Shown here one piece after another: positions 6,942 to 59,566 of a stretch of DNA of 64,000 nucleotides (position 1 is the stretch's first letter; every line of letters starts with the position of its first letter). The notes below the pieces were generated by a model. The model ran no database searches. It was not told the origin of the DNA and was given only the letters and a program-made list of their open reading frames with translations. The position numbers were made by a program, and so were the translations under genes. This DNA comes from a virus (Duplodnaviria; Caudoviricetes): positions 61,609 to 125,608 of the IMG/VR virus record IMGVR_UViG_3300033069_001940. One strand, written 5' to 3'.

Positions 6942-7262
6942 ATGTTATATGATCATTTGTGCAGCGCTTGTAATACAGAATTTGAATTAGAATATTCTAT
7001 TAAAGAAGATCCGCCTACAAAATGTCCATTATGTGGCGTTGATGGGCAGGTTAAACGGTTGATTTCCTATGCTACTCCAGGCAAGGTTGAATTATATGGA
7101 AGAGAACTTCAAGAAAAGAATAAAGAAGACGCTAGGAAGATGGTTAGAGATGGTGGAGAGAATTTTGTGGCCAATATTCTTGGCGAAAGTAGATATAACT
7201 CTTTAGCTAGTAACGCCGACCAATCTCGCGGTAAAAAATCCACATTTAGAAGAACAAAATAA
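6942..7262 (+). CDS. FmdB-family zinc-ribbon protein
   Basis: YDHLCSAC...CPLCG...RLIS. Confidence 0.8.
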   Translation: MLYDHLCSACNTEFELEYSIKEDPPTKCPLCGVDGQVKRLISYATPGKVELYGRELQEKNKEDARKMVRDGGENFVANILGESRYNSLASNADQSRGKKSTFRRTK

Positions 7263-7269
7263 AGGAATA

Positions 7270-7746
7270 ATGTTTGAAGAAAAAGTTACAAATTATGAGG
7301 TTAAATCATTAGATGAATTAAATCAATTCGTTGAGCAGAAAAAATCTGAAGGGTATACGGAAATAATTCCTGCTGATAATGTTAGGGAATTTAAAAAAGG
7401 ATTTTTTGTTTCTGAGCCTTGGCCAGATATTAACGATCCTAAAAATAAAGAAAAAATAATTTCTAAAGAAGTGTTTTTTGTCAATAGTTTTTATGTTACA
7501 TATTCAATTTATCCAACAGCTAAAATTAATCCATGCCAATATGTTGAAGATGTCGAGGAAATTAAAAAATTATTAAATGCTTATTGGGGTAAATTACAAA
7601 AAGCTGACAATCCAAAACAGCTTAGGGCGGGTTTTGTTTGGTATGATTACGATAAGAATGAAATTAATTCTTTTGAATTTCATATGAAACATGTACGAGA
7701 ATTAAAAGATATTTTAATTAGAGATAATTTTTGGACTTATGGTTAA
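7270..7746 (+). CDS. Hypothetical protein
   Basis: 158-aa ORF with AAGGA SD. Confidence 0.7.
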   Translation: MFEEKVTNYEVKSLDELNQFVEQKKSEGYTEIIPADNVREFKKGFFVSEPWPDINDPKNKEKIISKEVFFVNSFYVTYSIYPTAKINPCQYVEDVEEIKKLLNAYWGKLQKADNPKQLRAGFVWYDYDKNEINSFEFHMKHVRELKDILIRDNFWTYG

Positions 7747-7804
7747 TTATTAAAGACTCTTAATACTTCGAGCCTCTTGGTTTAAAACCATAACTCTTTT
7801 AGTT

Positions 7805-8494
7805 ATGAGTTTAAAAAATATCCAAGAACAAAACGAAAAAGTAGAAAAAATAATAGATCAGTTTCTTCTTTTAAAGAAGAATTCAGTTAAATCTTTGGCC
7901 AACAAACAAGAATTTGAAAAATTTCAAAACTTTTGTATGAAAGAATTAAATTTTTTAGTTCAAAAAAGAGTTGCTAAATATAAAAAGTTTTCTAATTATC
8001 AAGATTTGCAACAAGATGGATATGAGGCTCTTCTTTATGCTCTTCGGACCTTTAAAAGAGAAAAAGGCTGCTTCTCTTGGTGGGCTGATAAGTATATTAG
8101 CACAAGAGTGTCGAGGGCTGCTAACACACATTCCACAATCCGTTTCCCTTTAAAAGTTACAAAAGAGTCAAAGCCTCATAAAATTAGTATTGATACTTCA
8201 TCAACGGATGAACAATCTCAAATTATATTTTCGCAGGAAACTTATCCTTCTTCAGCTTTTCTGTTAGAAAAAGCCGAAGAAAACGCTATAGTGGGAGTTT
8301 TGTTAAATAAAATTGACCAACCTTATCAAGATTTATTAAAATTGACATATGGATTGGCTAATGAGATGGCTTTGCCAGTATCAAAAATAATTAAACAATT
8401 TCAAATATCTAGGTCTCAATATCTAAGGCTTCTAGAGGAAGCTAAAACAAAATTTAAAAATTTGTTAGATAATTATGAATATTCTGACAAATAA
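7805..8494 (+). CDS. Phage-encoded sigma70-family sigma factor
   Basis: Region 2: DLQQDGYEALLYALRTF..EKGCFSWWA..YI, TIRFP; region 4-like LTYGL...ISRSQY..L..EA. Confidence 0.85.
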   Translation: MSLKNIQEQNEKVEKIIDQFLLLKKNSVKSLANKQEFEKFQNFCMKELNFLVQKRVAKYKKFSNYQDLQQDGYEALLYALRTFKREKGCFSWWADKYISTRVSRAANTHSTIRFPLKVTKESKPHKISIDTSSTDEQSQIIFSQETYPSSAFLLEKAEENAIVGVLLNKIDQPYQDLLKLTYGLANEMALPVSKIIKQFQISRSQYLRLLEEAKTKFKNLLDNYEYSDK

Positions 8495-18991: not shown

Positions 18992-19629
18992 GAAAATTTA
19001 TTTTTGATGTAGGAAATGTTCTTTTTCATGTTAATTTTGATAAATTTAACAAAAGATTAAATGATTTAAATATTCATTTTCAAAATACCTCCAAATTGAA
19101 AACATTTGTAGACGATATTCAGGCTCATCAAGATTTGGGAATTGTTAATTTGGAGCAAGCTTTAAGGCATCACCTTGGAGTAGATGATAAATTCATTCCC
19201 GCTTTAGTAGAAGAATGGAATAATTGTTTGCAACCTAATATAAAAATGATTGATTTTTTTGAAAAAATTAAATCGAGTAAGTTTTATAATGAATTCAGAT
19301 TAATTGATCCTAAAGTCGCAATAGCTTCTAATATGGGTGTGGATCATTATAATTTCTTAAGAAATCAGTATCCAAATTTATTTAAAGGAATAGATGTATT
19401 TATTTCATCAAAAATTGGCGCTAGAAAACCTTCTAATTTATTTTTTCAATCCATAATTTTAGACTATCCAGCATACAGAGGGGCGTTATTTATTGACGAT
19501 CGAAAAGAAAATTTAGAAACAGCTTCTGGATATTTTCAAACTTATCATTTTGATTTACAACAATTATCCAATTCATCTAAACTAGATTCAGCTTTAGATC
19601 AATTATCAATGACAATTAAGAGTATGTAA
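18988..19629 (+). CDS. HAD-superfamily phosphatase (YihX-like)
   Basis: IFDVGNVL, IASN, RKP, FIDDRKENL. Confidence 0.85.
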   Translation: MRKFIFDVGNVLFHVNFDKFNKRLNDLNIHFQNTSKLKTFVDDIQAHQDLGIVNLEQALRHHLGVDDKFIPALVEEWNNCLQPNIKMIDFFEKIKSSKFYNEFRLIDPKVAIASNMGVDHYNFLRNQYPNLFKGIDVFISSKIGARKPSNLFFQSIILDYPAYRGALFIDDRKENLETASGYFQTYHFDLQQLSNSSKLDSALDQLSMTIKSM

Positions 19630-20017
19630 TAAGAACGTAAAGAGTATAATTTCTGTTTTTAACAGTATTTTTTATTGATTGAAACATTCCTGGAACAAAA
19701 ATATTAAATCTGCTACTTTCTTTTCCTAACAAGTTTGTAACATAATTAACTCTAGACTCATTAGTTTGGTATGGATTTTCTTCAAAGTTTCCAAATCTAA
19801 CAGCCAAACAGGGTTCTTTAAATAAAATGCCAACATCAGTTTCTGGGTCCGTAATGAAAACAGGAACTAAATCTCCTGGCTTTTGATTTTCTAAATATTG
19901 CCCCTCAGATCTGACTTTTTCAACTTTTTCATTTAATTTTAGAGCTAATGATTTAAAGTAACTAACCTTCTCAAAATCATCGGCTAATTTTACAAGGTTA
20001 TAATATTTATTTTTCAT
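19616..20017 (-). CDS. Hypothetical protein with N-terminal KLADDF peptide
   Basis: 133-aa ORF coupled to 20007-20879. Confidence 0.7.
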   Translation of the reverse strand: MKNKYYNLVKLADDFEKVSYFKSLALKLNEKVEKVRSEGQYLENQKPGDLVPVFITDPETDVGILFKEPCLAVRFGNFEENPYQTNESRVNYVTNLLGKESSRFNIFVPGMFQSIKNTVKNRNYTLYVLITYS

Positions 20018-35559: not shown

Positions 35560-36411
35560 ATGACTATCGGAATATATAAAATATCTAATAAAATAGACGG
35601 CAGATATTATATAGGGTCTTCAAAAAATATAGAAAAAAGATGGAAGACTCATAAAAGCCATTTAAAAAATAAAAAACATTGTAATATTTTCTTACAAAGA
35701 GCATATAATAAATATGGTATATCAAATTTTGAATTAACAATTCTTTTAGAATGCAGTAAAGACGATCTATTTAAAATAGAGCAAGATTATCTTAATCATT
35801 TAGATGATAATGCTTACAATTTAGCTAAACAAGCTAAAGGGGGTGATAATATAAGTTATCATTTAAATAGAAAGGAAATAATCGAAAAAATGAAAATTTC
35901 ATGCAAAAATGCATGGAGTAATTTTACACCAGAACAAAAAAGGCTTTTATCAGAATCTAGGTCTGGTGAAAATAATGGAATGTTTGGAAAACATCATTCC
36001 AAAGAAACAATAGAAAAAATTTCTTTCAAAATTAAAGAATATTATATTACACATGAGTCAATTAGAAAAGGAAAAAATTTTGATTCTATTTATACACCAG
36101 AAAAAGCAAAAGAATTAAGATCGAAATTTTCAAAAATAGCATCTCAAAGAGTTGGCGAGAAAAATCCATTTTATGGAAAAAAGCATTCTCAAGAGTTTAA
36201 ATTAAAATTAAGTGAATTGAGAAAAGGTCAATATAATGGATCGCAAAATATACCTTTCACTATAGATGGTGTTAGATATGAAAGCCTTTCGCAGGCCGCG
36301 AAGATTCTTAATTTGCATATTACTGTAATTAGGTGGAGATTACTTTCTAAAAATAAAAAGTTTGAAAATTATAAGTATTGCGAAAGAAATGAACAAGATG
36401 AAGAAAGTTAA
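35560..36411 (+). CDS. Free-standing GIY-YIG homing endonuclease with NUMOD3 repeats (I-TevI/Seg-like)
   Basis: GIYKI...YYIGSS...R; GENNGMFGKHHS and GEKNPFYGKKHS; C-terminal HTH. Confidence 0.92.
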   Translation: MTIGIYKISNKIDGRYYIGSSKNIEKRWKTHKSHLKNKKHCNIFLQRAYNKYGISNFELTILLECSKDDLFKIEQDYLNHLDDNAYNLAKQAKGGDNISYHLNRKEIIEKMKISCKNAWSNFTPEQKRLLSESRSGENNGMFGKHHSKETIEKISFKIKEYYITHESIRKGKNFDSIYTPEKAKELRSKFSKIASQRVGEKNPFYGKKHSQEFKLKLSELRKGQYNGSQNIPFTIDGVRYESLSQAAKILNLHITVIRWRLLSKNKKFENYKYCERNEQDEES

Positions 36412-36952
36412 AATTATTGCTTGTTGCGATATAAATGGTCTTATCGGCCGTGTGAATACAGGTGGTATGTCTGAAATTCCTTGGTCTTATCCAGAAGATC
36501 AAAAAAGATTCAAAGAATTAACCATGGGCACAACTTTGATTATGGGCCGTAAAACTTATGAATCACTTCCTACATCTAAATTGCCAGGAAGAACAATTCA
36601 TGTTATCACTAGAAATTACGATTATAAATCATCAGAAAAAGATAAAGTCTTTCAAAATATGAAAGATGCTATTATTCAAGCCAAAACTGATATTGTTTGG
36701 ATTGCTGGCGGCGCCGAAATTTATCAGGAAGCTTTGAATTTTGCCATGGCAACAGAAATCGATTTAACAGTAATCGACGGGATGCATGTTTTATTTGATC
36801 AAATAAAACATAATAAAACTATTTATTTCCCTCCAATTCCTTTATGTTATGTTCAAACAAAAAATGAATTAAATAAAAATGATAAAGCTCTTTATCATCG
36901 AACGTACGAGCTTATGACGAATTGGTATGGAGGTTGGGAATGGGAAAAGTAA
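36398..36952 (+). CDS. folA: Dihydrofolate reductase
   Basis: IPW..PED...F...T, IMGRKTYESL, LPGR, AGGAEIY. Confidence 0.92.
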   Translation: MKKVKIIACCDINGLIGRVNTGGMSEIPWSYPEDQKRFKELTMGTTLIMGRKTYESLPTSKLPGRTIHVITRNYDYKSSEKDKVFQNMKDAIIQAKTDIVWIAGGAEIYQEALNFAMATEIDLTVIDGMHVLFDQIKHNKTIYFPPIPLCYVQTKNELNKNDKALYHRTYELMTNWYGGWEWEK

Positions 36953-37297: not shown

Positions 37298-37540
37298 ATG
37301 AAAATCTATGCATTATATAATCCAAATCATCTTCATTTAATCAAGAACATTTCTTTCTTTTCAACCAAAGAAAAAGCTTGTGCAGCCCTTGACGCTATGT
37401 ATAAAGGGATTAAATCCCGAGGTGGAGTTCATGAAATTAAAAAGTCAGAAACAGAATTCTCTTTTCTTTTTGGCTGGGAAGAGGCTCAAGTAGTTTGGAG
37501 AGTTGTGGAAATTGAATTAGACCAAGAGGAAAAATGTTAG
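37298..37540 (+). CDS. Hypothetical protein
   Basis: Probable start MKIYAL. Confidence 0.6.
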   Translation: MKIYALYNPNHLHLIKNISFFSTKEKACAALDAMYKGIKSRGGVHEIKKSETEFSFLFGWEEAQVVWRVVEIELDQEEKC

Positions 37541-38328
37541 AAAAAATTAAAGAATTACGCGCTAGAACTTTTTTAAGTATGAATGACTGCAAAATTGCTT
37601 TGGAGAAATCCGATTATGATGTAGAAAAAGCGATTGAATATTTACAAAAGAATGCTGGACTTAAAAAAGCAGATTCGTTATCTTTAGCTTTAGAAGGGAG
37701 AGTTTTAGCTAAGTCAAGCGGCAGCCTTGGGGCAATAGTAGAAGTTAATTGCCAGACTGATTTTGCCGCTAAGTCAGACTTATTTATAGAATTTGTAGAT
37801 AAGGTTGCTCAATCTTTAATGTCAGTCAAAAATGTTGACGTTTTATCTAGTAAAGACTATGAATTTATTGCGGCTCAATTGGGAGAGAAAGTTGTTTTTA
37901 GAAGGTCTAATGTGATTTACAATCAAAATCAGAATGCTAGATTAACCGCCTATAATCATTTAGGTGGTAAAATCGCTGTTCTTTTAGAAAGTTTAGTTTT
38001 GCTTGACTATAATCATTTGGCTTTAGAGAATGTTGCTATGCAAATCGCTGCAACCAAGCCTTTGGCTTTGGATAAAAAGTCTCTACCAAAAGAACTCGTG
38101 GAAAAACAAAAAGAAAAATTTCTTTCAGAGGTAGAAAATAAACCAGAATCAGTTAAAGATAAGATAGTCGCTGGTAAGATGGAGAAATGGTATTCTGAGG
38201 TTTGCCTCTTGAATCAAGACTGCATTTTCATTGAAGGGAATAAGAAAATGACAGTTGAAAATTATCTCAAAGAAAACAAGATTGAAAAAATTCAATCATT
38301 TTCAAGATATGAAAAAGGCGAATTATGA
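37534..38328 (+). CDS. tsf: Translation elongation factor Ts
   Basis: IKELRART...M.DCK.AL, EVNCQTDFAA, LGEK, AMQIAA..P, KP....KIV.GK..K...EVCLL.Q, RYEKGE. Confidence 0.95.
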   Translation: MLEKIKELRARTFLSMNDCKIALEKSDYDVEKAIEYLQKNAGLKKADSLSLALEGRVLAKSSGSLGAIVEVNCQTDFAAKSDLFIEFVDKVAQSLMSVKNVDVLSSKDYEFIAAQLGEKVVFRRSNVIYNQNQNARLTAYNHLGGKIAVLLESLVLLDYNHLALENVAMQIAATKPLALDKKSLPKELVEKQKEKFLSEVENKPESVKDKIVAGKMEKWYSEVCLLNQDCIFIEGNKKMTVENYLKENKIEKIQSFSRYEKGEL

Positions 38329-38841: not shown

Positions 38842-39331
38842 GTTTTTGATAACTAAAATGATGAAAATTAAAAAGAAAAATCTTCCTTTTAAGATAAAAT
38901 CTATTTTAGTAGACAAAGGTTCTTGTTTTGTAGCAGAAATTAATTCTAAAAAAGTTGTAAAAGTAGCTTATAAAACTTCCAATATTAGGTGGCTATTTAA
39001 TATCTTAAAATATATTAAAACGAATCCAAATAACAGTACGGTTAAGATTTTTGATTATGGCTTAATTGGTAAAGATAAATATTATTATGTTATGGAGAGG
39101 TTGTATCCATTAAATAAACAACATATAAATCGTTTAATCAAAAATGGTTATGTTAGCTTTGTATGCAATAAACCTTTACATGATGCAAAATCTTATCCAA
39201 ATGAATCCGCTTTTATAAATGATATTTATCAACATAAATATTATCAATCAGACCCTAATTATGGAAATATTATGTTAACCAAAAATGGTAACTATAAATT
39301 TATAGACTTAGAAACATTTATAAAATTTTAA
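38825..39331 (+). CDS. Minimal protein kinase-like protein (start uncertain)
   Basis: VVKV, VKIFDYG, YYVMERL, DPNYGNIM, KFIDLE. Confidence 0.7.
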   Translation: MNTLNKFLITKMMKIKKKNLPFKIKSILVDKGSCFVAEINSKKVVKVAYKTSNIRWLFNILKYIKTNPNNSTVKIFDYGLIGKDKYYYVMERLYPLNKQHINRLIKNGYVSFVCNKPLHDAKSYPNESAFINDIYQHKYYQSDPNYGNIMLTKNGNYKFIDLETFIKF

Positions 39332-41559
39332 TTCCTAAATTGTTGAATAAAATTAATAGCTTCTTCTTTTGTCATAGCGGGATTTTCCAATAAAGCCTCT
39401 TTTAAGGCTTTGGTAACTTTGCCAACTTCGGGCCCCGGCTTTAGTCCTAGTATTGACATAATTTCTTTACCAGTAATTGGTGGAGCAATATCTTTTTTAC
39501 CACCAGTCATTTTAAGATATTCATCAATCATTTTTCCAAAACGATCGTACTTGGGATCTAGTTCAGATTTGGCTTTACCCATAGAATCGCCTTTAGACAT
39601 ATCAACTGACAAAAAGCTATCTTGTGGCCCTAAGTCTGTTACAAAGCTTCTAATGCTTTTATCTGAAACGTCTGAAGGCAATCCATGAAGTCTCATATGA
39701 TTCTTAATTAAAGAAACTACCCTATCTTTAATATCATTAGGGGCTTTTAAATCAGTAAGTATTTCTTCAGCCATCAACGCTGAAGAAACTTCATGTCCTC
39801 GGTAAGTATAATGTTCTGGGTTATCTTTTTGTTGTGAGCAAACATCACATTTGCCGCTGTCGTGGAGAAGCATTGCTAGATTTCTAACAATTTCATCTTT
39901 AACATCCATTTTCTTAGCAAAAGATAATCCAGATTCATCCATATGCTTAAGATATTCTAAAGCCTTCATAGTATGGTTCCAAACTGTTTCAGTATGGTGT
40001 GGATTGTTTTGTTCCATATCCCAATCAGGAGTAGGCTGATTAATATTCCATTTCTCCCCGCTAGCCCTATTTTTTCTGACTTCTTCTTGATGTCTTTCAT
40101 AGGCTCTTTGAATTTGTTCTAGATTTGGTTTTAAAATTAAATCTCTAATACCTAAATCTTTTAATAATCTAGCAGCGCGATCGAAGTTAGGGCCAATTAG
40201 TAAGCCGCGCTTCCAATTATCTTTTTCTTTTTGTCCAATTAATTCAGATAAAATTCTTTCTTTGGTAATCTTTTTGCTAAAACTTTCTTGTACCCTAGGA
40301 TCATTAGCAGCAGCGATTAAACCTGGGTCTAATTGTAGATCGTATTTAGCCGCAAATCGAACGGCTCTTAGAATTCTAAGAGGGTCTTCTAAATAAGTTT
40401 GCACCGGATCGATTGGTGTTCTAGCTACTTTATTTTCTAAATCGTCTATTCCTCCAACAAAATCTTCAACTTTATCTTCGTTGATATTATAAAATAAACT
40501 GTTGATAGTTAAATCACGACGTTTAGCATCTTCTTCGGCAGGAACACCAAATTCTACTTCTGGGTTTCTAGAATCATCATTATAAACATCTTTTCTTAAT
40601 TGAACAAAATCAACTGAAATTCCTAGAATTGGAATTTGTGCTGATTCTATATTTTTATTAGCCTCTGTATTAGCTTCGACAGTAGTAACTTCTTCGGCTG
40701 CTGGCATGCCTTGTTCTTTCATCCATTCTAAAACTAATTTAGCAAAAGCAACTCCTGTCATATTATCAATAGCAATATCAATATCATGGGATGCTTTGCC
40801 CAAAAGTTTATCGCGCACCCAGCCGCCAGCCGCTCTTAAAACGGTGCTTGGAGTTTTTTCACGAACTACGGCCATGAGAAGTTCGAATATTTCTTTTTCC
40901 CTTTCTGTTAAAGAGATTTGAGAAGATAACTTAGCTTCTTTGGTTATTTTGTAAGAAGATAATTTTTTCCAAAATTCACGAGAGGCACTGGCAATTTTTG
41001 ATTCTAAGGTTAACATTCCTATTCCTAATAAATTTGCATCTTTAATTGAATGACTATTTCTAACTACTGCATTTGACTTAGGGCCAGAGTTTCCTTCAAT
41101 TGAAGTAAAATTATTTCCATTTGAGGATTCAATGACGCCTATATGACCTAATCCAGAACCTTGTGGTCCGCGTGACCAAACAGCTATATTGCCTGGGATT
41201 AAATGTTTAGGCTCTATTTTATTTTTGGGGATCCAGAGATTAGCTTGAGCGAATTGATTACCAACTTCGCGGGCTCCAACTGCTCCTTTAATCGGGCTGC
41301 TTCCGGCTTCTAACATCCAACTAGAGACAGCGGCAGCGCACCAATCTTGTTTGGCGCCCATCCCAAAATGTTTAAAATATTCTCTTATTCTTTGACCGTC
41401 ATTTTTGCCGAGGTCTTCGGAAACACCAATGTCTGCTTGGGCATTGTGTAAGACAGCTAATCCATAGGAGCTTGGGTTGATTCTGTTTTCCGGATCAAAA
41501 TCTTCAAGATCGGGCAAATATTCTTCCATTGATGGTATATCTTTTTCAGGCATTATCAT
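39328..41559 (-). CDS. cca: Fusion: CHAP-domain amidase + class II tRNA nucleotidyltransferase (CCA-adding/poly(A) polymerase family) with HD domain
   Basis: CHAP: WCAAAVS, GHIGVI, IEGNS; CCA: GGWVRDKLLG, DIDIA, RRDLTINSLFYN, EDPLRILRAVRF, QNNPHH...VWNH, LLHDSGK, GHE. Confidence 0.9.
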   Translation of the reverse strand: MIMPEKDIPSMEEYLPDLEDFDPENRINPSSYGLAVLHNAQADIGVSEDLGKNDGQRIREYFKHFGMGAKQDWCAAAVSSWMLEAGSSPIKGAVGAREVGNQFAQANLWIPKNKIEPKHLIPGNIAVWSRGPQGSGLGHIGVIESSNGNNFTSIEGNSGPKSNAVVRNSHSIKDANLLGIGMLTLESKIASASREFWKKLSSYKITKEAKLSSQISLTEREKEIFELLMAVVREKTPSTVLRAAGGWVRDKLLGKASHDIDIAIDNMTGVAFAKLVLEWMKEQGMPAAEEVTTVEANTEANKNIESAQIPILGISVDFVQLRKDVYNDDSRNPEVEFGVPAEEDAKRRDLTINSLFYNINEDKVEDFVGGIDDLENKVARTPIDPVQTYLEDPLRILRAVRFAAKYDLQLDPGLIAAANDPRVQESFSKKITKERILSELIGQKEKDNWKRGLLIGPNFDRAARLLKDLGIRDLILKPNLEQIQRAYERHQEEVRKNRASGEKWNINQPTPDWDMEQNNPHHTETVWNHTMKALEYLKHMDESGLSFAKKMDVKDEIVRNLAMLLHDSGKCDVCSQQKDNPEHYTYRGHEVSSALMAEEILTDLKAPNDIKDRVVSLIKNHMRLHGLPSDVSDKSIRSFVTDLGPQDSFLSVDMSKGDSMGKAKSELDPKYDRFGKMIDEYLKMTGGKKDIAPPITGKEIMSILGLKPGPEVGKVTKALKEALLENPAMTKEEAINFIQQFRN

Positions 41560-41607
41560 TCCTTAATACATTTTAATGTTGATATATCGCTAGATTAATA
41601 AGACAAT

Positions 41608-41955
41608 ATGGCAAATAATAATCAAGAACCAAATAATCAAAATCCCAAAGAAAATTCATCTGAGAAAAATGAAGTAACGCCTCAAAATAACGCCGAAGTG
41701 CCTAAAAAGCAAGAGAAATTCGTCACTCCGGTTAAAAGATATTATACAGTCAAAGTGGAGACCTTAACTCCTGTGATATTTTCCTACAGGATTTTAGCCG
41801 AGTCTCCAGAGGAGGCAATTAAAATCTCTGCGGACACTTGGAAACAACCGTCACAAGTATCTCCTCCACAGATTCTTTCTGGTAAGATGAAAAGACTAAA
41901 AGCAACAGTTTATGAATATGGTACCAATTTAATTAAATTGGTTAAAGCTTTATAG
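41608..41955 (+). CDS. Hypothetical protein
   Basis: 115-aa ORF. Confidence 0.7.
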   Translation: MANNNQEPNNQNPKENSSEKNEVTPQNNAEVPKKQEKFVTPVKRYYTVKVETLTPVIFSYRILAESPEEAIKISADTWKQPSQVSPPQILSGKMKRLKATVYEYGTNLIKLVKAL

Positions 41956-41966
41956 GTATAAAATAA

Positions 41967-42428
41967 ATGCAAGATTACTTATTAACAGATTTGGATATTA
42001 AAAATTTTAGCGATTTTCTCTATAGATTAAAAAAATGCATTGAATACATTTTAGAAAAAACAATAGTTATTTGCGAACTAGGTTATAGACCTAATCTCGA
42101 TGTCAAGCTTGATGGTTCTTTCACAGAAACGTTTGACTATCAAATAGTAAGATTTCGCGCCCATTCATTAGGAATTTCTAGACTAGAGATTATTCACAAT
42201 GGAAAAACTATCGATCTGTCAAGAAATATTCCATTGCCTTTTATCACAGATCCTAATTTTGAGGAAAAAATAAAAATTGGACGCAAATTATATTTAGATT
42301 CAATTATGGAAGCTCAAAACCTTCAACTGAAAAAATCAGAGCTATTAAAAAATGCAAAGAATAAACTTACCGTAGAAGAATTTAATGAATTGCGTAAAGA
42401 TATAATTGAAGATTACAGAAAAGATTGA
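41967..42428 (+). CDS. Hypothetical protein
   Basis: 153-aa ORF. Confidence 0.7.
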   Translation: MQDYLLTDLDIKNFSDFLYRLKKCIEYILEKTIVICELGYRPNLDVKLDGSFTETFDYQIVRFRAHSLGISRLEIIHNGKTIDLSRNIPLPFITDPNFEEKIKIGRKLYLDSIMEAQNLQLKKSELLKNAKNKLTVEEFNELRKDIIEDYRKD

Positions 42429-42441
42429 AAGGTATAAAAAA

Positions 42442-42498
42442 ATGGCGGGATTAAAGTATTTTATTATTGATACAGCTAGCATTTTTCCAGTTTGTTAG
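42442..42498 (+). pseudogene. Stranded 5' end of the exonuclease gene
   Basis: MAGLKYFIIDT.. vs MSGLKYFILDVET at 43580; both preceded by ATTGAAAGG. Confidence 0.85.
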
Positions 42499-43527
42499 TA
42501 TTAAATTTAGTTCATTAATTGTTGCATTATTTTTACAGCAATTAGCTATTGAAGATATTATTTGAACATTACCTTTTACATAGCCTAAATTATTATCAAT
42601 TCTGTCTAGTGTGGCTGAATATTTGCTATTTGCCTTTGTGCCAAATACAAATTTTTCACCAGTTAAAGGACAGCGGTTATCTAAAGGCCAGATTGATTTT
42701 AAATAATTCTCATCAATATTAAACTCCAAATTTTTCTTTGTAGCTCTTTTTTTAGCTCTATTTATTAAACCATTTTCCAAATGCAGCATAATATATTTCA
42801 TAGCCCTCGTTGGCGCGCTTTTCTCAACAAAAGCCATTCTGTCCGCAATAATATTTGACATAGTGACATCATCTATATTATGCGTCTCTATTTTGTATGT
42901 TTTAAGATTGTTTACTATTTTTTCAAAAAGTTTTAAATCAGAATTTGATTTTATTAAATTGGCCCTATAAGATATTATTTGAATATTTTCTTTTGTATAT
43001 CCTTTAGATGAATCTATTCTATCTATGGATGGAGAGTTATCATGCGCTTTATTATTACTTCCTTTTTGGAATTGGACATTTCGCAAAATACAGCGCTCTG
43101 TATTTTGTAATAGTAATTTAATATCTTCTTCTGTTATTGTAAATTCGAGACCAGATTTTCTAGCCCTTTGTCTGGCCGATGAGAATAAGAAATATTCCGG
43201 CCTATTGATTGTCCGATTTTTATCATATTGTAATAAACGCTCATGATTTTTATCAGTGTATTCTTTTCTCCAATTTTTATAAGCTTCATAATTTTCTTTT
43301 CTAGATTTGGCTTTAGATAACCGCTGACGCTCCCTGATTTTATCTAGGTTTTTATTACGATATCTTTGTTTACTAGCCTGTAATTTTTCTGGGCTGTTTT
43401 GTTTGAAGTTATTAGCATAAATCTGATACTTTTGCCGACACACTTGACATCTTTTATATGTTCTGTTGGTGCCTAGAAATTCTTCTAAATCAAATTCTTT
43501 TTTACAAATAGTACAATTTTGTTTCAT
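42451..43527 (-). CDS. HNH-type (His-Me finger) endonuclease with N-terminal Zn ribbon and two nuclease domains
   Basis: CxxC..CxxC; SIDRIDSSKGYTKENIQIISYRANLIK and TLDRIDNNLGYVKGNVQIISSIANCCK. Confidence 0.85.
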   Translation of the reverse strand: MKQNCTICKKEFDLEEFLGTNRTYKRCQVCRQKYQIYANNFKQNSPEKLQASKQRYRNKNLDKIRERQRLSKAKSRKENYEAYKNWRKEYTDKNHERLLQYDKNRTINRPEYFLFSSARQRARKSGLEFTITEEDIKLLLQNTERCILRNVQFQKGSNNKAHDNSPSIDRIDSSKGYTKENIQIISYRANLIKSNSDLKLFEKIVNNLKTYKIETHNIDDVTMSNIIADRMAFVEKSAPTRAMKYIMLHLENGLINRAKKRATKKNLEFNIDENYLKSIWPLDNRCPLTGEKFVFGTKANSKYSATLDRIDNNLGYVKGNVQIISSIANCCKNNATINELNLILTNWKNASCINNKIL

Positions 43528-43579: not shown

Positions 43580-44158
43580 ATGTCAGGATTAAAATATTTT
43601 ATTTTGGATGTAGAAACTAATGGTTTATCTGCTCAAATACACGAGGTTAGTCAATTATCTATAATTAGGTGTTCGGATTTGGTTCAACTTAGCCGATATG
43701 TTAAAATTGAACATCCAGAGAAAACCTCCCGTGAAGCGCTAATAAAGACCGGAAGAACTTACAAAGATTTACTTAAAGGCGACGCAAAATTAGAAGTTAT
43801 AGATAGAGTAGAAAAATTCTTAGCGGAGGATGGGTCGCATCCAGACGAGCGTTGTGGAATCGGGCATAATGTAAGTTTTGATCGCCGCTTTCTTAAAGCC
43901 ATGTGGGAATCCGTTGGTAAAAAGTTTCCAGTCAATAATTGGCTTGACACTAGACCGATGGCGAAAAAATATGCCATGAAACTAGGTCTAGAAAAACCCT
44001 CCATGACATTAGAGAACATTTTAAAATTTGCAGAAATTAAAGGATTTGCTAATTTTCATAATGCCATTGACGATACAAGAAATCTTTATCTGTTTTGGAA
44101 AAAGTCAGTAGATCTAGGAATAGATTATCTAGATTGTATTAAACGCGATGAAGACTAA
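43580..44158 (+). CDS. DEDDh 3'-5' exonuclease (DnaQ-like), second copy
   Basis: LDVETNG, GHNVSFD, LDT, FHNAIDD. Confidence 0.9.
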   Translation: MSGLKYFILDVETNGLSAQIHEVSQLSIIRCSDLVQLSRYVKIEHPEKTSREALIKTGRTYKDLLKGDAKLEVIDRVEKFLAEDGSHPDERCGIGHNVSFDRRFLKAMWESVGKKFPVNNWLDTRPMAKKYAMKLGLEKPSMTLENILKFAEIKGFANFHNAIDDTRNLYLFWKKSVDLGIDYLDCIKRDED

Positions 44159-59185: not shown

Positions 59186-59566
59186 ATGCAAAAATATTCT
59201 TCTCTTTTATTTGCAAGCTCTAAATTCTTAAAATTAGCCCAAAATAATGTTAATACACAATATTCGGGAGAGCAAGCTAAAAATGAAATTAAAACATTAG
59301 TTACTAACAAATTAGCTGAACTTTGTTCTCAATTATCACAACAAGGAGTCCAATGTACTTATATTGGCGTTACGGTTGATGTAACAAATGGCCAGCCGTC
59401 TTTTGAAGTTGATACAATGGCTGTTTCAGATGATGCCAAAATGAAATATAATCAGGAAAGTTTAAAAATTCTTAATTCTTTAAATCTTAAAGTTCAAAAA
59501 ATACTTAAAAAACATAATATAAAAGATTCATTTAAATTTGGAATAGAAGTAACTCCAACAGTTTAA
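59186..59566 (+). CDS. Hypothetical protein with N-terminal ASSKFLKLAQ peptide
   Basis: 126-aa ORF; upstream late-type motif. Confidence 0.7.
   Translation: MQKYSSLLFASSKFLKLAQNNVNTQYSGEQAKNEIKTLVTNKLAELCSQLSQQGVQCTYIGVTVDVTNGQPSFEVDTMAVSDDAKMKYNQESLKILNSLNLKVQKILKKHNIKDSFKFGIEVTPTV

Follow-up and report, generated by a model that had tools for sequence, protein, structure and literature searches.

The window analysed here, a stretch of 64,000 nucleotides, is the right half of the 125,608-bp IMG/VR record IMGVR_UViG_3300033069_001940 (CheckV completeness estimate, 29%), which is a fragment of a huge uncultured phage. The G+C content is ~30%, and no tRNA gene was found in the window or in the 125-kb record. 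On its minus strand the window carries a gene (P0001) that joins a CHAP peptidoglycan hydrolase domain to a class II tRNA nucleotidyltransferase, predicted to be a CCA-adding enzyme, with an HD phosphohydrolase domain. The original prediction, made from the DNA alone, had described a single open reading frame (ORF) of 743 amino acids (aa) with the catalytic Cys and His of CHAP in its first part and the nucleotidyltransferase and HD domain in its second, lying antisense to its neighbours. The ORF, the Pfam matches and the conserved residues confirmed this arrangement, and the orientation is retained in relatives.

Two enzyme modules in one protein

Pfam recognised CHAP (PF05257) at residues 70-157 (31.1 bits, cut-off 26), the PolyA_pol head (PF01743) at residues 242-379 (98.5 bits, cut-off 23) and HD (PF01966) at residues 527-626 (24.6 bits, cut-off 22). 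The tail domain, tRNA_NucTran2_2, was matched at residues 688-735 with 25.2 bits, slightly below its cut-off of 27. An AlphaFold2 model built on a 106-sequence alignment comprised a disordered N-terminus, a folded CHAP domain, a low-confidence linker and the CCA/HD region, with the borders given in Table 1; residues 213-743 were modelled with a predicted local distance difference test (pLDDT) score >90. CHAP and CCA/HD are thus modelled as two separately folded modules with a low-confidence linker between them. A second ATG at position 41553 has an AAGGA Shine-Dalgarno sequence 6 nt before it, and in its database copy the protein is 741 aa long. Translation may start at 41559 (743 aa) or at 41553 (741 aa), and the true product is possibly the 741-aa protein.

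The class II motifs GGxVRD, DxD (A), RRD (B) and EDxxR (D) are invariant across 106 relatives, as are the HD metal-binding residues His529, His566-Asp567, His589, His621 and Asp658, and the neck, body and tail domains of the enzyme are present. The CHAP residues Cys74, His139 and Glu155/Asn157 are conserved in 4/4 CHAP-type homologues, and 181 library proteins matched the CHAP module at E values up to 1e-10. Among the relatives, catalytic residues are kept in all three types of hydrolase (CHAP, M23 and M15) and in the CCA and HD sites. Judged by sequence, both halves of the fusion look catalytically competent, and CCA addition to tRNA is the predicted activity of the nucleotidyltransferase half. 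M23 and M15 domains occupy the orthologous position in relatives, suggesting that the CHAP module cleaves peptidoglycan.

Foldseek matched the model of residues 213-743 to full-length CCA enzymes (9kma, E 2e-22, TMt 0.71). The best solved relatives of residues 209-459 were Arabidopsis 9kma and the S. pombe cca1/cca2 pair (9ns2/9ns4), at E ~1e-55. The head and neck are far nearer to these eukaryotic enzymes than to the solved bacterial ones (E ~1e-17). The HD domain, unlike the eukaryote-like head and neck, is of the bacterial type, and the eukaryotic class II enzymes (9kma; 9ns2/9ns4) differ from the fusion in having neither an HD domain nor a hydrolase module. At the N-terminal side, PHROG endolysin families matched residues 35-251, and one PHROG match of the fusion was to a baseplate hub/tail lysozyme family. 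The G+C content of the fusion gene is 0.36 (window 40001-42000) compared to ~0.30 in the surrounding genome.

Fused, split and exchanged forms among relatives

The original prediction had pointed to the linker as the place where a sequencing error could have joined two genes. Contigs from two studies bridge it: an identical contig (X1) runs across the linker, and so does a ~95% identical variant (X4/X5) from a separate 2018 wastewater study. The only insertions and deletions in this variant are two that lie elsewhere in the gene and compensate each other, so that the frame is kept overall, and outside one diverged patch 26/32 listed substitutions fall at third codon positions (p ~4e-8). Nor are the homologues always separate proteins: most of them are fused, some 30 have a fusion architecture of this kind, and the CHAP-CCA arrangement recurs in one homologue at 87% identity and in two at 58%. 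These independent assemblies, these homologues and many further fusions refute an assembly or frameshift artefact joining two genes, an explanation to which we give practically no chance. The fusion is a genuine, selected and recurrent architecture.

N-terminal extensions were counted among the 120 best homologues. Long extensions were present in 29/120, of which 17 were M23, four M15/VanY, four CHAP (three by Pfam and P0005 by homology) and one PTPase, with three having no assigned domain. Two homologues carry the JGI automatic name 'tRNA nucleotidyltransferase / murein endopeptidase'. A tree of the CCA core contains a large phage-only clade, with cellular (bacterial) relatives at most 30% identical. 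The fused forms are polyphyletic on this tree, with stand-alone enzymes in between: CHAP appears twice (once nested within an M23 clade), M23 at least twice and M15 twice. Among relatives the N-terminal wall hydrolase (CHAP, M23 or M15) has been swapped, and by this tree the fusion arose several times. Two of the enzymes counted as stand-alone, P0021 and P0020, are split versions of the fusion: each CCA gene is immediately preceded, on its own strand, by an M23 gene that either overlaps it by 8 nt or ends 10 nt before it.

In the phages with split genes, the CCA gene is followed by a gene for a ~160-aa multi-pass membrane HExxH protein (L165:7545-8036; L166:2907-3386), which overlaps the CCA gene by 4 nt or begins 5 nt after it; no homologue of this protein was found in the genome studied here. 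No hydrolase can be recognised in the 541-aa gene that precedes P0011, the closest stand-alone relative. N-terminal extensions of 200-345 residues also precede the CCA enzymes of further huge phages in IMG/VR (L090, L091, L094, L096, L098, L101, L106, L109, L107 and L114; ~7000-8100 each), most of them with no Pfam or PHROG match and one matching an unnamed PHROG. Megablast of the 5-kb gene region against GenBank phages and a scan of IMG/VR for close relatives returned nothing near, and a search of five more distant IMG/VR huge-phage genomes did not turn up the hydrolase modules.

Short conserved peptides accompany the modules. The hydrolase modules (CHAP, M23 and M15) open with an acidic/amphipathic peptide of the type acidic-x-L-hydrophobic-x-x-L-hydrophobic-G, degenerate in the protein studied here, followed by an acidic or low-complexity spacer of 40-90 residues. 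An amphipathic K-h-A-x-x-h helix is found in fusion linkers, at the C-terminus of stand-alone CHAP and, as a leader of ~20 residues, on about two dozen stand-alone phage CCA enzymes. The linker site is the position of this junction helix and, in the M23 relatives, of an LSKKA-type border motif; in most M23-CCA fusions LSKKA(E/Q) stands exactly at the end of the M23 domain. The recurring peptide that the original prediction saw in the linker is borne out in relatives, where the helix is clear (hydrophobic moment 0.35-0.56), but is degenerate and poorly amphipathic in this protein (0.15). In this genome three paralogous kinases and no fewer than three small, unrelated proteins carry a similar peptide, S/N-K-h-h-K-L-A-x-E/D, at the N-terminus (Table 1), the kind of leader that many stand-alone phage CCA enzymes also have. 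A hidden Markov model of the junction/leader helix found nothing significant among this genome's ORFs. A loose regular expression for the leader had 8/17 matches within the first 30 residues (p ~0.001), an enrichment that weakens to p 0.01-0.09 once the paralogous kinases and doubtful ORFs are collapsed. The leader peptide may serve in capsid targeting, in membrane binding or in docking.

The fusion gene occupies a conserved antisense slot between an RNase_T-family exonuclease gene and the genes for DHFR, thymidylate synthase and IMPDH. This slot contains CHAP-CCA in the window and in L002, M23-CCA in L003, separate M23 and CCA genes in L165, M23 followed by one to three HExxH modules with no CCA enzyme in P0130-P0135 (L167/L168), and a lone 225-aa CHAP protein in L170/L171. 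Because the slot can hold CHAP alone, CHAP-CCA, M23-CCA or M23-HExxH, its constant element is the hydrolase, with the C-terminal enzyme as variable cargo. The M23-HExxH proteins (P0130-P0135; L167:8001-10250) have the same N-terminal peptide and M23 domain fused to one to three copies of a ~270-residue HExxH module, for which no Pfam match was found.

In the window, the elongation factor Ts (EF-Ts) gene and small genes are inserted between the DHFR gene and the fusion gene; in relatives the EF-Ts position is taken by other genes. Homing-endonuclease-type genes flank the region at 42451-43527 (minus strand) and 35560-36411 (plus strand). One is an HNH/endonuclease VII gene whose product also matches, at its C-terminus, a PHROG named Srd anti-sigma factor, and the other is of the GIY-YIG/NUMOD3 type; a GIY-YIG gene also lies directly upstream of the M23-CCA gene in L003. 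Near the slot in relatives are an intein-interrupted IMPDH gene and a WGR/PARP-type ADP-ribosyltransferase gene (L165:10362-12602; L002:19739-21262; L003:21076-22202). In the 48-bp region upstream of the fusion gene, neither a sigma-70-like promoter on the minus strand nor a significant shared motif was found, the promoter and terminator scan being uninformative. Screening upstream regions for enriched 6-mers turned up nothing but a coding-sequence artefact. The late-type motif that had been assigned to the gene in the original prediction is an AT-rich hexamer whose generalised pattern is no commoner than expected by chance (7 found compared to 6.8 expected), so the assignment is unsupported.

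Table 1. Coordinates of the fusion gene, its parts and other features discussed in the text (window positions unless another locus is named)
Feature	Position	Strand	Remarks
Whole fusion ORF	39328..41559	-	Uninterrupted; 743 aa + stop; P0001
Acidic disordered N-terminal region, residues 1-53	41401..41559	-	Predicted; holds degenerate copy of the N-terminal peptide
CHAP peptidoglycan hydrolase domain, residues 54-181	41017..41400	-	Cys74, His139, Glu155/Asn157
Flexible linker, residues 182-212	40924..41016	-	Low pLDDT; single weak helix at 188-202
Class II tRNA nucleotidyltransferase head, neck and body, residues 213-516	40012..40923	-	Motifs A-E intact
HD phosphohydrolase and C-terminal tail domain of the CCA enzyme, residues 517-743	39331..40011	-	
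Divergent intergenic region upstream of the fusion, 48 bp	41560..41607	.	
RNase_T-family DEDDh exonuclease gene	43580..44158	+	Conserved syntenic neighbour of the slot in relatives
DHFR gene	36362..36952	+	Conserved syntenic marker, opposite flank of the slot
Elongation factor Ts homologue	37534-38328	+	PF00889, E 4e-42; two genes from the fusion
Locus with S/N-K-h-h-K-L-A-x-E/D peptide	C1:58451-62584		Window about -3150 to 976
Locus with S/N-K-h-h-K-L-A-x-E/D peptide	19616-20017	-	
Locus with S/N-K-h-h-K-L-A-x-E/D peptide	59186-59566	+	
Portal-adjacent giant polyproteins	L100:2885-10693; L102:4683-11783; L092:5374-12206		

CCA-HD modules in head-module proteins and in known systems

Related CCA-HD modules were found in head-module proteins of other phages. 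In L102, L100 and L092, the terminase and portal genes are followed by a gene for a polyprotein of 1,400-2,600 aa with topoisomerase IB, 2H phosphoesterase and CCA-HD modules. The exact sequence LSKRA occurs 5-7 times in each of these polyproteins, at recognised domain borders including the one right before the CCA module, and is probably a processing signal. A looser form of LSKRA (degenerate at four of the five positions) had one match in the 45,770 residues of this genome's ORFs. In L151, the genes for the head protease and the major capsid protein are preceded by that of a 2,230-aa MuF-HATPase-CCA-HD protein.

The polyvalent proteins known from phages and conjugative elements join wall hydrolases to effectors that act in the cytoplasm, and injection is predicted for them (Iyer, Burroughs, Anand, de Souza & Aravind 2017, PMC5512222). 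The fusion resembles them in being a phage-encoded polypeptide of disparate domains, one attacking peptidoglycan and the other a cytoplasmic enzyme, and in having related CCA-HD modules in the MuF fusion and the portal-adjacent giants of other phages. It differs from them in having only two modules, no MuF, portal or zincin domain, and a position here outside any packaging operon; an association with late or packaging genes, or with such domains, was found only for the distant modules in L100, L102, L092 and L151. The text of the polyvalent-protein paper mentions neither a CCA-adding enzyme nor its combination with CHAP or M23 (PMC5512222).

The nucleotidyltransferase half is 45-60% identical to ~100 metagenomic phage proteins and shares its class II and HD composition with the stand-alone phage CCA enzymes (PHROG 2244), which are read as acting in tRNA 3'-end repair or maturation (PMC7824862; PMC7162821); those of jumbo phages have been read as RNA repair enzymes (PMC7824862). 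The stand-alone enzymes have ~500 aa, many with only the ~20-residue amphipathic leader, whereas the fusion has the hydrolase and the junction peptides in front. Like virion-associated peptidoglycan hydrolases, the fusion holds a lytic domain within a larger non-endolysin protein. Examples of such hydrolases are the N-terminal transglycosylase of T7 gp16, the C-terminal peptidase of T5 Pb2 and staphylococcal HydH5. Virion-associated hydrolases reside in ejected or tail proteins (PMC3150257), and their partner domains are structural or channel-forming, unlike the RNA repair enzyme joined to CHAP here.

The original prediction knew of no described example of the fusion, and none was found in the literature searched, although the general idea behind it is the published polyvalent-protein concept (PMC5512222). 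The architecture is widespread in metagenomic huge phages, is undescribed as far as our literature search reached and extends both polyvalent proteins and virion-associated lysins. New here are the swapping of hydrolases, the repeated fusion, the split forms, the single slot with variable cargo and the occurrence of CCA-HD in LSKRA-punctuated polyproteins and in a MuF fusion.

Possible role of the fusion in infection

Our best reading, held tentatively and a little short of even confidence, is that the protein is loaded into the virion and its CCA/HD enzyme delivered at infection in the manner of a polyvalent protein. The first module, consisting of the N-terminal peptide, the spacer, the CHAP domain and the junction helix, would be a wall-hydrolase carrier, and the second a complete class II CCA-adding enzyme with an HD phosphohydrolase that would rebuild damaged tRNA 3' ends. 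The fusion would behave as a small polyvalent protein and be taken up into the virion. When the phage infects a cell, the hydrolase would assist in opening the wall, and the CCA/HD enzyme, made beforehand, would pass in along with the DNA and rebuild tRNA tails, for example against tail-cutting immunity. The halves may separate at the junction, since natural split versions exist. The recurrent fusion with three types of wall hydrolase in related phages suggests that the repair enzyme travels with the virion, and the CCA-HD modules in portal-adjacent polyproteins and in the MuF fusion, together with the alternative cargoes in the same slot, are indirect support for delivery. Cas12a3 immunity cuts tRNA CCA tails (PMC12851939), which makes it a plausible target for CCA/HD repair; the text of that paper does not mention CCA-adding enzymes.

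Several observations weigh against virion delivery. The neighbours of the gene serve nucleotide metabolism and translation (DHFR, EF-Ts, exonuclease and NAD synthase), the gene belongs to no head or tail module, and the fusion has no MuF, portal or zincin domain and no clear LSKRA-type site. At the border where the M23-CCA fusions carry LSKKA(E/Q), it has only a loosely similar S-K-I-A, and its linker helix has the low hydrophobic moment given above. No head protease was found in the record, which is 29% complete. A wall hydrolase that entered the cytoplasm along with the DNA would have no use there, which makes the topology of delivery a difficulty for this reading. Packaging, ejection, linker cleavage and late expression are hypothetical.

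The strongest rival to virion delivery is that the protein is the endolysin-type lysin of this lineage, waiting late in the cytoplasm with CCA/HD attached for cytoplasmic work, and having no virion role and undergoing no cleavage. We consider this unlikely but deserving of serious weight. The original prediction had stressed that the two activities work in different compartments; this is not in itself a paradox, as waiting in the cytoplasm is what canonical endolysins do. What stays constant in the slot is a small hydrolase, which is also found on its own at 225-273 aa, shuffling of CHAP, M23 and M15 is typical of endolysins, and the PHROG endolysin matches and the position of the gene outside structural modules are consistent with such a role. 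The incomplete 125-kb record yielded no other lysozyme, SLT or amidase. The C-terminal amphipathic helices of stand-alone hydrolases resemble those of some Gram-negative endolysins and were counted on the same side. However, no holin-like or other membrane protein was found within three genes on either side (six ORFs without hydrophobic segments), and of the features of canonical endolysins neither an adjacent holin or spanin nor a signal or signal-arrest-release (SAR) sequence was found, the N-terminus being acidic and disordered. The conserved N-terminal peptide with its 40-90-residue spacer is also atypical of endolysins, and a lysin role leaves unaccounted for both the repeated independent covalent fusions with the same cargo and the homologous CCA-HD modules in the portal-adjacent polyproteins.

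It is improbable that the protein is a neutral 'Rosetta-stone' fusion, in which two adjacent genes that are transcribed together but do unrelated work are linked by co-expression only. Split and fused forms do alternate among close relatives, and the AlphaFold2 model of separate modules joined by a low-confidence linker is what such a fusion would look like. At least five to six independent fusions of three unrelated hydrolase folds to the same partner family in the same order would, however, be hard to obtain without selection, and the junction and N-terminal peptides are conserved. Slightly less probable still is that an activity has been misassigned, the nucleotidyltransferase being a poly(A), CC-only or A-only enzyme or one acting on another RNA, or CHAP cutting a non-wall amide. 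CCA-, CC- and A-adding enzymes are not told apart by sequence alone, the S. pombe pair that splits the CC- and A-adding steps is among the best solved relatives, and the 125-kb record is without tRNA genes. On the other side, every class II motif is in place, as are the body and tail domains, and M23 and M15 replace CHAP in relatives; as CHAP, M23 and M15 share only peptidoglycan as substrate, we argue that the job of the N-terminal module is wall hydrolysis.

Virion delivery could be extended to a general proposal, which we regard as speculative and rather doubtful: in a lineage of huge phages the wall-hydrolase carrier, with its conserved N-terminal peptide and an amphipathic junction helix that also serves as a leader on stand-alone CCA enzymes and on unrelated proteins of this genome, would be a cargo-loading device that puts tRNA-tail repair enzymes and other effectors into the capsid, rescuing translation from the first seconds of infection against CCA-clipping immunity such as Cas12a3. 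Recognition of tRNA as a target of bacterial immunity is growing, and the enzymes involved include some that clip its CCA tail. If virion delivery is true, the fusion would represent a new class of injected counter-defence, in which pre-made tRNA repair is hitched to a wall-opening enzyme, and this would explain the repeated fusion; if the protein is an endolysin, it would be a curiosity of gene fusion. Whatever the mechanism, the family is a natural experiment, with three hydrolase folds, with fused, split and cargo-swapped forms in one slot, and with motif-punctuated polyproteins. Together, these forms could define how huge phages load enzymes into their capsids.

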